Below, piece after piece: positions 7,113-7,241 of a stretch of DNA of 9,826 bases. Below the pieces are notes generated by a model. That model had not been told where the DNA came from. It saw nothing but the letters and a program-made list of their open reading frames with translations, and did not search any database. The DNA is taken from IMG/VR virus record IMGVR_UViG_2619619132_000009, one strand, 5' to 3'. The position numbers and the translations under genes were made by a program. The stretch comes from a virus (Duplodnaviria; Heunggongvirae; Uroviricota; Caudoviricetes). The first letter of the stretch is position 1, and every line of letters starts with the position of its first letter.

Positions 7113-7148
7113 ACGCTTAAAAACTCATTCTAAAACTCAAAAGAAAAG

Positions 7149-7190
7149 CGCCGATTTAGTATCAAATAAGTTGCGTATCGGCGTTTTTCA
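7149..7190 (+). terminator. Possible intrinsic terminator after mom (7-bp GC stem, long loop, T5)
   Basis: CGCCGAT (7149-7155) pairs with ATCGGCG (7177-7183), followed by TTTTT (7184-7188), 37 nt after the mom stop. The 21-nt loop is unusually long. Confidence 0.3.
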
Positions 7191-7223
7191 GCGGTATCAA
7201 ATGAAATGCAAATCGGTATCAAA
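7158..7223. repeat. Three direct copies of GTATCAAA (two as the 10-mer CGGTATCAAA) in the non-coding junction
   Basis: GTATCAAA at 7159-7166, 7194-7201 and 7216-7223; CGGTATCAAA at 7192-7201 and 7214-7223 (22-bp spacing). Confidence 0.5.
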
Positions 7224-7241
7224 AAAATCGCCGCGCTATAG

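Follow-up and report, generated by a model that had tools for sequence, protein, structure and literature searches.

In phage Mu, the transposase binds to sites at the phage ends, synapses the two ends, nicks them and joins them to target DNA. The right end of Mu lies directly after mom at the phage–host boundary and holds three 22-bp sites; the MuA consensus on Mu's own sequence places R1 at positions 6–27 and R2 at 28–49 from the tip, and R3 is inverted at 56–77. At the left end of Mu, L1 (6–27) is accompanied by two distal sites at about 100–175, with L3 at 151–172. The tips 5′-TG…CA-3′ are conserved at all described Mu- and B3-like ends, the TA-TA prophages of Leptospira being the exception, and the target duplication is 5 bp in Mu and 6 bp in B3 (PMC8705779). 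The Leptospira prophages make a 6-bp duplication and encode a transposase of the B3/Tn552 family (PMC8705779). In the D3112-like phage Ab30, the insertion orientations are offset by five base pairs, implying a 5-bp duplication (PMC5977238). In Escherichia coli, Sp18 has been described as an intact, packaged and mobile Mu-like phage whose locus varies by strain and includes Stx phages; none of these papers gives its end sites, the sequence of its tip or the length of its duplication (PMC2669165, PMC7430833, PMC10132054).

The whole stretch of DNA analysed here (the window; 9,826 nt) is the entire contig JHDL01000048.1 of assembly GCA_000601335.1. Judged from sequence, the segment 7113–7240 is very probably the right end (attR) of an Sp18-type Mu-like transposable prophage inserted in an Ag43-family gene, and the three short repeats within it are very probably the cores of transposase sites. 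Support for this assignment comes from the exact boundary, from the repeats together with their mirror at the left end and their conservation in relatives, and from insertion at random sites with duplications of 4 bp. The last prophage gene is mom (6375–7112, plus strand; 245 aa), which matches the Pfam Mom family (PF25680, E = 7.8e-78) and shows 100% nucleotide identity to the mom genes of many Mu-like prophages in E. coli. Window positions 5764–7241 were 100% identical, and 1193–4995 were 99.95% identical, to a prophage of strain DLI.5a, and 6112–7240 showed 94.7% identity to prophage Sp18 of O157:H7 strain Sakai, which is annotated as Mu-like. The last 128 bp differ from Sp18 at one base, and the gene order invertase–DUF6645–DUF1378–DUF826–com–mom is shared; the two differ in that Sp18 is inserted in sorM, whereas the window copy is inserted in Ag43 and carries an IS1. 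As the attR of a known prophage family, the feature is an ordinary part of a familiar type of element. The left end of the phage was found at 284 places in 233 of the 5,426 complete E. coli genomes, beside unrelated genes. A degenerate pattern spanning both tips had no match among contigs of species-representative genomes, either to the window or to this type of end.

The far end of the full sister copies (annotation of records L008, DLI.5a, and L017, Sakai Sp18) encodes a repressor-like protein, a small DNA-binding protein, a transposase of 680–696 aa and an AAA ATPase; no integrase is annotated in either copy. The transposase matched Pfam Mu-transpos_C and, weakly, HTH_Tnp_Mu_1, and gave no match to the DDE_2, HTH_Tnp_Mu_2 or Mu I-gamma models. 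Its nearest phage relatives are those of Yersinia vB_YpM_5/6 (79% identity) and Klebsiella Kp4866-3 (56%), followed by SuMu and Mannheimia 3927AP2 (43–45%) and the D3112-like Pseudomonas phages (30%). By BLAST the last three groups, aligned over about 84–91% of the length, are nearer than MuA (24% identity). The com-mom region showed 72% nucleotide identity to Mu, similarity to Mu stopping at the end of mom, and blastn found no similarity to Mu past the mom stop codon. The DLI.5a copy (26842–46214 of L008) is only about 19.4 kb long, with the head genes and most tail genes deleted and both ends and the early region intact; it is a defective copy that might still be mobilisable in trans.

The boundary of the prophage was located by aligning seven independent insertions of the same prophage, in bglJ, bcsA, a DUF6531 gene, citF, a diguanylate cyclase gene, flgL and the Ag43 gene of the window. 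Apart from one substitution in one copy, the sequences were identical through base 7240 (…ATCGCCGCGCTATA) and diverged from 7241. Consistently, when 6900–7500 was compared by megablast with the complete genomes of E. coli, the mom side matched at many loci and the matches broke off at 7240–7241. When IMG/VR contigs were included, 24 distinct right flanks followed the same base (17 beyond the seven aligned). Genes of the Ag43/Cah family match the window from 7240/7241 on. The A at 7240 fits both the phage and the Ag43 sequence, its match to Ag43 being a coincidence: the intact Ag43 allele reads …CTGCAGGTGAACGCC, and in strain AH65 it reads …AAACTGCAGGTGAACGCC across the site. The earlier note had placed the end of the repeat-rich stretch where Ag43 homology begins, which proved right to the base (7240|7241). 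It had also asked whether the same sequence lies upstream of intact Ag43 genes; nothing resembling 7113–7240 was found upstream of the breakpoint in intact alleles. Its remark that a terminal CA is absent was correct as well, the terminus being TA.

On the host side, positions 7242–9200 (plus strand) hold a 3′ fragment of an Ag43/Cah-family autotransporter gene, corresponding to codons 297–948 of a 948-codon gene. Window positions 7240–9243 were 97.4% identical to 2501–4503 of a related sequence (L002), whose coding sequence spans 1615–4461; the best Ag43 allele match among complete E. coli genomes was 96.7% identical. The fragment retains the Pfam domains AIDA, AC_1, Pertactin and Autotransporter and lacks the signal peptide and the N-terminal part of the passenger. 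The same mom–Ag43 junction is present on short contigs (L051, L052) of two sister assemblies, GCA_000601155.1 and GCA_000601175.1, showing that the insertion is common to a small clone. The left junction of the window copy lies on another contig, and the transposase gene is likewise outside the window. A 149-aa open reading frame on the minus strand (7130–7579) spans the phage–host junction and is almost certainly spurious, since it bridges two unrelated sequences.

The right tip reads …CTATA in every copy (7236–7240, plus strand, in the window), with A7240 as the last phage base and presumptive 3′-OH donor, and each of the 24 distinct right junctions has TA. At the left tip most copies read TGTAACC, but others, including M3 and several IMG/VR contigs, read TATAACC (at 199–205 of L009, and in L024, L033, L034 and L040), so that the second base of this tip is polymorphic and the latter copies have the form TA…TA. 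In DLI.5a the left end starts TGTAACCAGGTGAATCATTTGATACCG, and the matches of the other insertions begin at the same T. The tips therefore differ from the 5′-TG…CA-3′ of Mu-type ends, being TA on the right and TG or TA on the left. In the Yersinia and Klebsiella relatives, too, the right tip appears to be TA; for the Yersinia phage, the tips were set by register and not by junction evidence. The deposited Sp18 feature of strain Sakai (672–39430 of L017) begins one base inside the left tip, at the G of TGTAACC, and overruns the right tip by five bases (through TAAAG); the borders derived here are 671–39425 (38,755 bp).

The duplication of target DNA at the two ends was 4 bp in all pairs examined, as against the 5 bp of Mu or the 6 bp of B3. 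In DLI.5a the host sequence reads …CCGCGTAC up to the left tip and GTACCCGG from the right tip onward, and comparison with the empty bglJ site of strain K-12, CCGCGTACCCGG, shows that exactly GTAC was duplicated. Pairs of junctions that each came from one genome gave CGCA for M3, CGGG for AST198, GGTG for OkiPb01696, TAAA for Sakai Sp18, AGAA for IMG 2529293218 and AACA for IMG 2548876695 (the left/right pairs used were L008, L009/L007, L010/L011, L012/L013, L017, L019/L046 and L028/L029). An empty flgL site sought in K-12 with the M3 flanks gave no match within four mismatches, so the M3 pair is read from its two junctions. When all 18 left flanks were compared with all 24 right flanks, 12 overlaps of exactly 4 bp were found against 1.7 expected, and none of 5 bp or more. 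A scar of 5 or 6 bp with a misassigned tip base was considered and rejected: a 5-bp reading needs the host base to be always T or always A, whereas K-12 bglJ has C on both sides of GTAC and the phage tips are T and A. The sequence evidence for a 4-bp scar and a TA tip is strong.

Just outside the duplication, the 18 left and 24 right flanks showed a weak, symmetric enrichment of G followed by C, in small numbers (G in 12/24 and C in 14/24 at right-flank positions 5–6; G in 8/18 and C in 7/18 at left-flank positions −6 and −5). This hints at a target preference of GC-NNNN-GC, from which the site of the window copy, CA-GGTG-AA, departs.

A TA tip where described Mu- and B3-like ends have CA counts against the reading as a Mu-type end, and it could be taken to mean that the end is genuine but belongs to a dead remnant, disabled by mutation of the tip. 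The IS1 in the window copy (4996–5763) and the deletions in some sister copies, such as the DLI.5a copy of about 19 kb, would fit a dead remnant. However, the presence of TA at 24/24 right junctions, and its inferred presence in the Yersinia and Klebsiella relatives, implies that this tip is ancestral and compatible with repeated transposition. In addition, the last 1.4 kb of the window copy is 100% identical to that of other independently inserted copies, and efficient packaging of Sp18 DNA has been reported (PMC2669165). A disabled end is therefore improbable, and the segment is better taken as the right end of a family that transposes with a TA tip.

The eight-base sequence GTATCAAA is present exactly three times in the window, at 7159–7166, 7194–7201 and 7216–7223, all on the plus strand, and two of the copies belong to the longer CGGTATCAAA starting at 7192 and 7214, a spacing of 22 bp. 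Three direct repeats, two of them 22 bp apart, had been described in the earlier note, and both the number and the spacing were borne out. Similarity between the repeats reaches about 16 nt (GTATCAAAnnAnnnGC, 81% identity). Mapped as 22-bp sites on the minus strand, they comprise an R1-like site at 7214–7235 (core CGGTATCAAA, 7214–7223; 6–27 nt from the tip), an R2-like site at 7192–7213 (core CGGTATCAAA, 7192–7201; 28–49 nt from the tip) and an R3-like site at 7157–7178 (core TAGTATCAAA, 7157–7166; 63–84 nt from the tip), the last in the same orientation as the other two. The R1-like and R2-like sites abut each other, as in Mu, and both are conserved in relatives.

The same motif, inverted and at equal distance from the tip, was found at the other end of the element in sister copies (L008, L017 and L009–L012), where the earlier note had suggested that matching repeats be sought. 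With cores mapped as TTTGATAC(C/T)(G/A) and numbered inward from each tip, the right-end cores of the window lie at 18–27, 40–49 and 75–84, and the left-end cores of the sister copies at 18–27, 113–122 and 165–174. The sequence TTTGATACCG is found at 18–27 from both tips, and all six cores point inward. The corresponding 22-bp sites of the left end are L1 at 6–27 (L008, L017) and two more at about 101–122 and 153–174. Across the whole 38.8-kb Sp18, 6/8 copies of TTTGATAC fall within 175 bp of the tips.

The arrangement was also found in the relatives Yersinia vB_YpM_5 and Klebsiella Kp4866-3. Measured from the inferred right tip, both have TTGATAC cores at 18, 40 and 74–75 nt; at the left end, a core at 18 from the tip is joined by two further, more distal sites. 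These phages keep the cores and their spacing, whereas the sequences of the intervening spacers differ. The three right ends (E. coli, Yersinia and Klebsiella) align without gaps over about 85 nt, in which the tip TA[T/A]AGCGCG and the three cores are conserved. On the basis of position, symmetry and conservation, the repeats are best read as transposase-binding sites.

This architecture is that of Mu, and the recognition sequence is not. Both right ends come directly after mom at the phage–host boundary with three 22-bp sites, the coordinates of R1, R2 and L1 are the same in the two, and both left ends have L1 and two distal sites at about 100–175. A G+C-rich block is found next to the tip in both (TGAAGCGGCG in Mu, TATAGCGCGG here). 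The differences are the site motif (nnATTTGATACYR here, YGTTTCAYTNNAARYRCGAAAR in Mu), R3 (direct at 63–84 here, inverted in Mu), the tip (TA against CA) and the duplication (4 bp against 5 bp). The MuA 22-bp consensus, which was run on Mu's ends only, finds R1–R3, L1 and L3 there; the equivalent positions in the window's phage hold TTTGATACYR sites, and the element does not belong to phage Mu proper. The earlier note had been unable to match the repeats to the Mu attR, and this is accounted for: mom is shared with Mu, but the motif of the sites is not, and the transposase is a distant relative of MuA. Its proposal that repeats at the terminus of the element are recombinase or transposase binding sites is supported in the form of a transposase end, given the inverted motif at the other end, the many loci and the duplications, with binding itself being inferred.

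A 22-bp periodicity is also typical of iterons, and the sites might serve another phage protein, such as a repressor, a Ner-like regulator or a packaging or replication factor, instead of the transposase. Sites that face inward at both tips in the exact register of Mu R1, R2 and L1 argue against this, as does the co-variation of the motif with a distinct transposase lineage. In Mu, moreover, the operators of the repressor are confined to the left end, close to the early promoter, and packaging also begins at that end alone, which counts against a binder other than the transposase. We consider this explanation unlikely, give it slightly less weight than that of a dead remnant and retain the sites as putative transposase sites.

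The segment also contains a hairpin with a T-run, as the earlier note had observed. It lies 3′ of the mom stop codon (7112) at 7143–7189 on the plus strand and consists of 13-nt arms (7143–7155 and 7177–7189; 92% complementary) and a 21-nt loop, followed by TTTTT; with an A-run before it and the T-run after it, the structure is symmetric. The predicted fold of 7105–7245 gave z = −2.9 relative to shuffled sequences. The hairpin is a probable intrinsic terminator of com-mom. It was passed over by the promoter scan, which has a strict loop limit and which found no sigma-70-like promoter in 6000–7600; no RNA family of Rfam was found within the window. The first GTATCAAA copy sits inside the hairpin loop, and this position of R3, together with its direct orientation, also counts against the reading as a Mu-type end. 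The hairpin is absent from the Yersinia and Klebsiella relatives and the repeat in its loop is kept there, implying that the two features are separable. The repeats are part of the transposition end, and the hairpin is most simply explained as a terminator of com-mom in the E. coli lineage.

Given so convincing a hairpin, the segment might be only the 3′ untranslated region of mom with its terminator, the repeats having arisen by chance in an A/T-rich spacer; indeed, the 10-mer CGGTATCAAA with one mismatch allowed reaches at least two matches in 28/200 shuffles and is not significant on its own. The exact 8-mer GTATCAAA, by contrast, has a mean chance expectation of 0.34 and occurred three times in 0/200 dinucleotide-preserving shuffles. 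Chance would also leave unexplained the left-end mirror at equal distance from the tip, the 6/8 phage copies at the tips and the cores at fixed positions in diverged relatives without the hairpin. This explanation is very improbable, and the repeats are again better understood as cores of transposase sites. Scarcely credible is an attR of a prophage or island that uses a site-specific tyrosine or serine recombinase, with the repeats as arm-type sites for recombinase or excisionase: clustered short direct repeats are also typical near such boundaries and a serine recombinase gene is present at 1397–1969, but that gene encodes a Gin-type invertase beside the 142-bp inverted repeats of the tail-fibre segment, the junctions have no common core, no single attB core was found, the full sister copies have genes for a DDE transposase and an AAA ATPase but no annotated integrase gene, and the same phage at many unrelated loci, flanked by 4-bp duplications of otherwise unrelated target, identifies the end as that of a transposase.

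Several other features of the window were noted. The tail-fibre and tail-fibre-assembly segment (1–1335) is bounded by 142-nt inverted repeats (1–142 and 1178–1319; 95% complementary) and adjoins the invertase gene; the contig begins within one repeat arm. Its orientation is opposite to that in the DLI.5a copy, which is otherwise 99% identical; a host-range switch resembling the G segment would be expected to show such a reversal. A 684-aa gene (2055–4109), located between the invertase gene and com, encodes SASA (sialate O-acetylesterase-like) and DUF6645 domains; Mu has nothing at this position. The region around it (1168–4133) is about 70% identical to Sakai Sp18, compared with about 95% for the phage ends, which suggests a fast-evolving cargo or receptor-related gene. 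Between the DUF826 gene and com is an IS1-family element of 768 bp (4996–5763), which splits a small hypothetical gene on the minus strand that is intact in the DLI.5a copy; the 9-bp sequence CAAAGTGAT is duplicated on its two sides (4987–4995 and 5764–5772). The insB frame of this IS1 contains an in-frame TAG stop near 5536–5538, so the copy is probably not autonomous.

By analogy with Mu, a DDE transposase would bind R1–R3 and L1–L3 and pair the two ends; both the binding and the chemistry of cleavage and joining are inferred. A nick after the terminal A (7240, top strand) would expose the 3′-OH, which would be joined to target DNA with a 4-bp stagger, and repair of the gaps would yield the duplication. 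R3 would merely happen to fall in the loop of the com-mom terminator, between mom and R2. For the window insertion, the 4-bp duplications of the sister insertions predict that GGTG at 7241–7244 (plus strand) is the right copy of the duplication and that the 5′ Ag43 fragment, which would be 891 nt long and end …CTGCAGGTG, closes with GGTG as well. The partner left end would read T(G/A)TAACC, that is T(G/A)TAACCAGGTGAATC, and would lie about 37–39 kb upstream.

Among described systems, the Leptospira TA-TA prophages are alike in being transposable and in having non-canonical TA tips, like the TATAACC copies here; they differ in their 6-bp duplication, B3/Tn552-family transposase and unrelated hosts and genomes (PMC8705779). 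The Sp18-type phages make a 4-bp duplication, and most copies are TG…TA, as against TA-TA in Leptospira. A search of the available library found no literature on the ends of Sp18 or on a 4-bp duplication in Mu-like phages, which is not proof of novelty; the site motif, the direct R3, the TA tip and the 4-bp duplication appear to be previously undescribed. Whether the transpososome of the Sp18 clade, with Yersinia vB_YpM_5/6 and Klebsiella Kp4866-3, differs from those of all described transposable phages in a 4-bp stagger, a natural TA right tip with TG/TA polymorphism on the left and its own 22-bp motif, ATTTGATACYR, is in our judgement an evenly balanced question.

For annotation, these results fix the exact prophage–host boundary at 7240|7241 and provide a signature for locating Sp18-type ends, namely T(G/A)TAACCAGGTGAATCATTTGATACC on the left, …CGGTATCAAAAAAATCGCCGCGCTATA on the right and a 4-bp duplication. 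They show that inactivation of the Ag43-family gene came about through phage transposition and not through a deletion or an assembly artefact. Sp18-type prophages are present in about 4% of complete E. coli genomes, where they often disrupt genes and other prophages, Stx phages included. The point for transposition biology is modest and of specialist interest and does not change present understanding; if true, a natural TA tip and a 4-bp stagger within the Mu family would offer a comparison for how transpososome geometry sets the stagger and for the stringency of the terminal CA.
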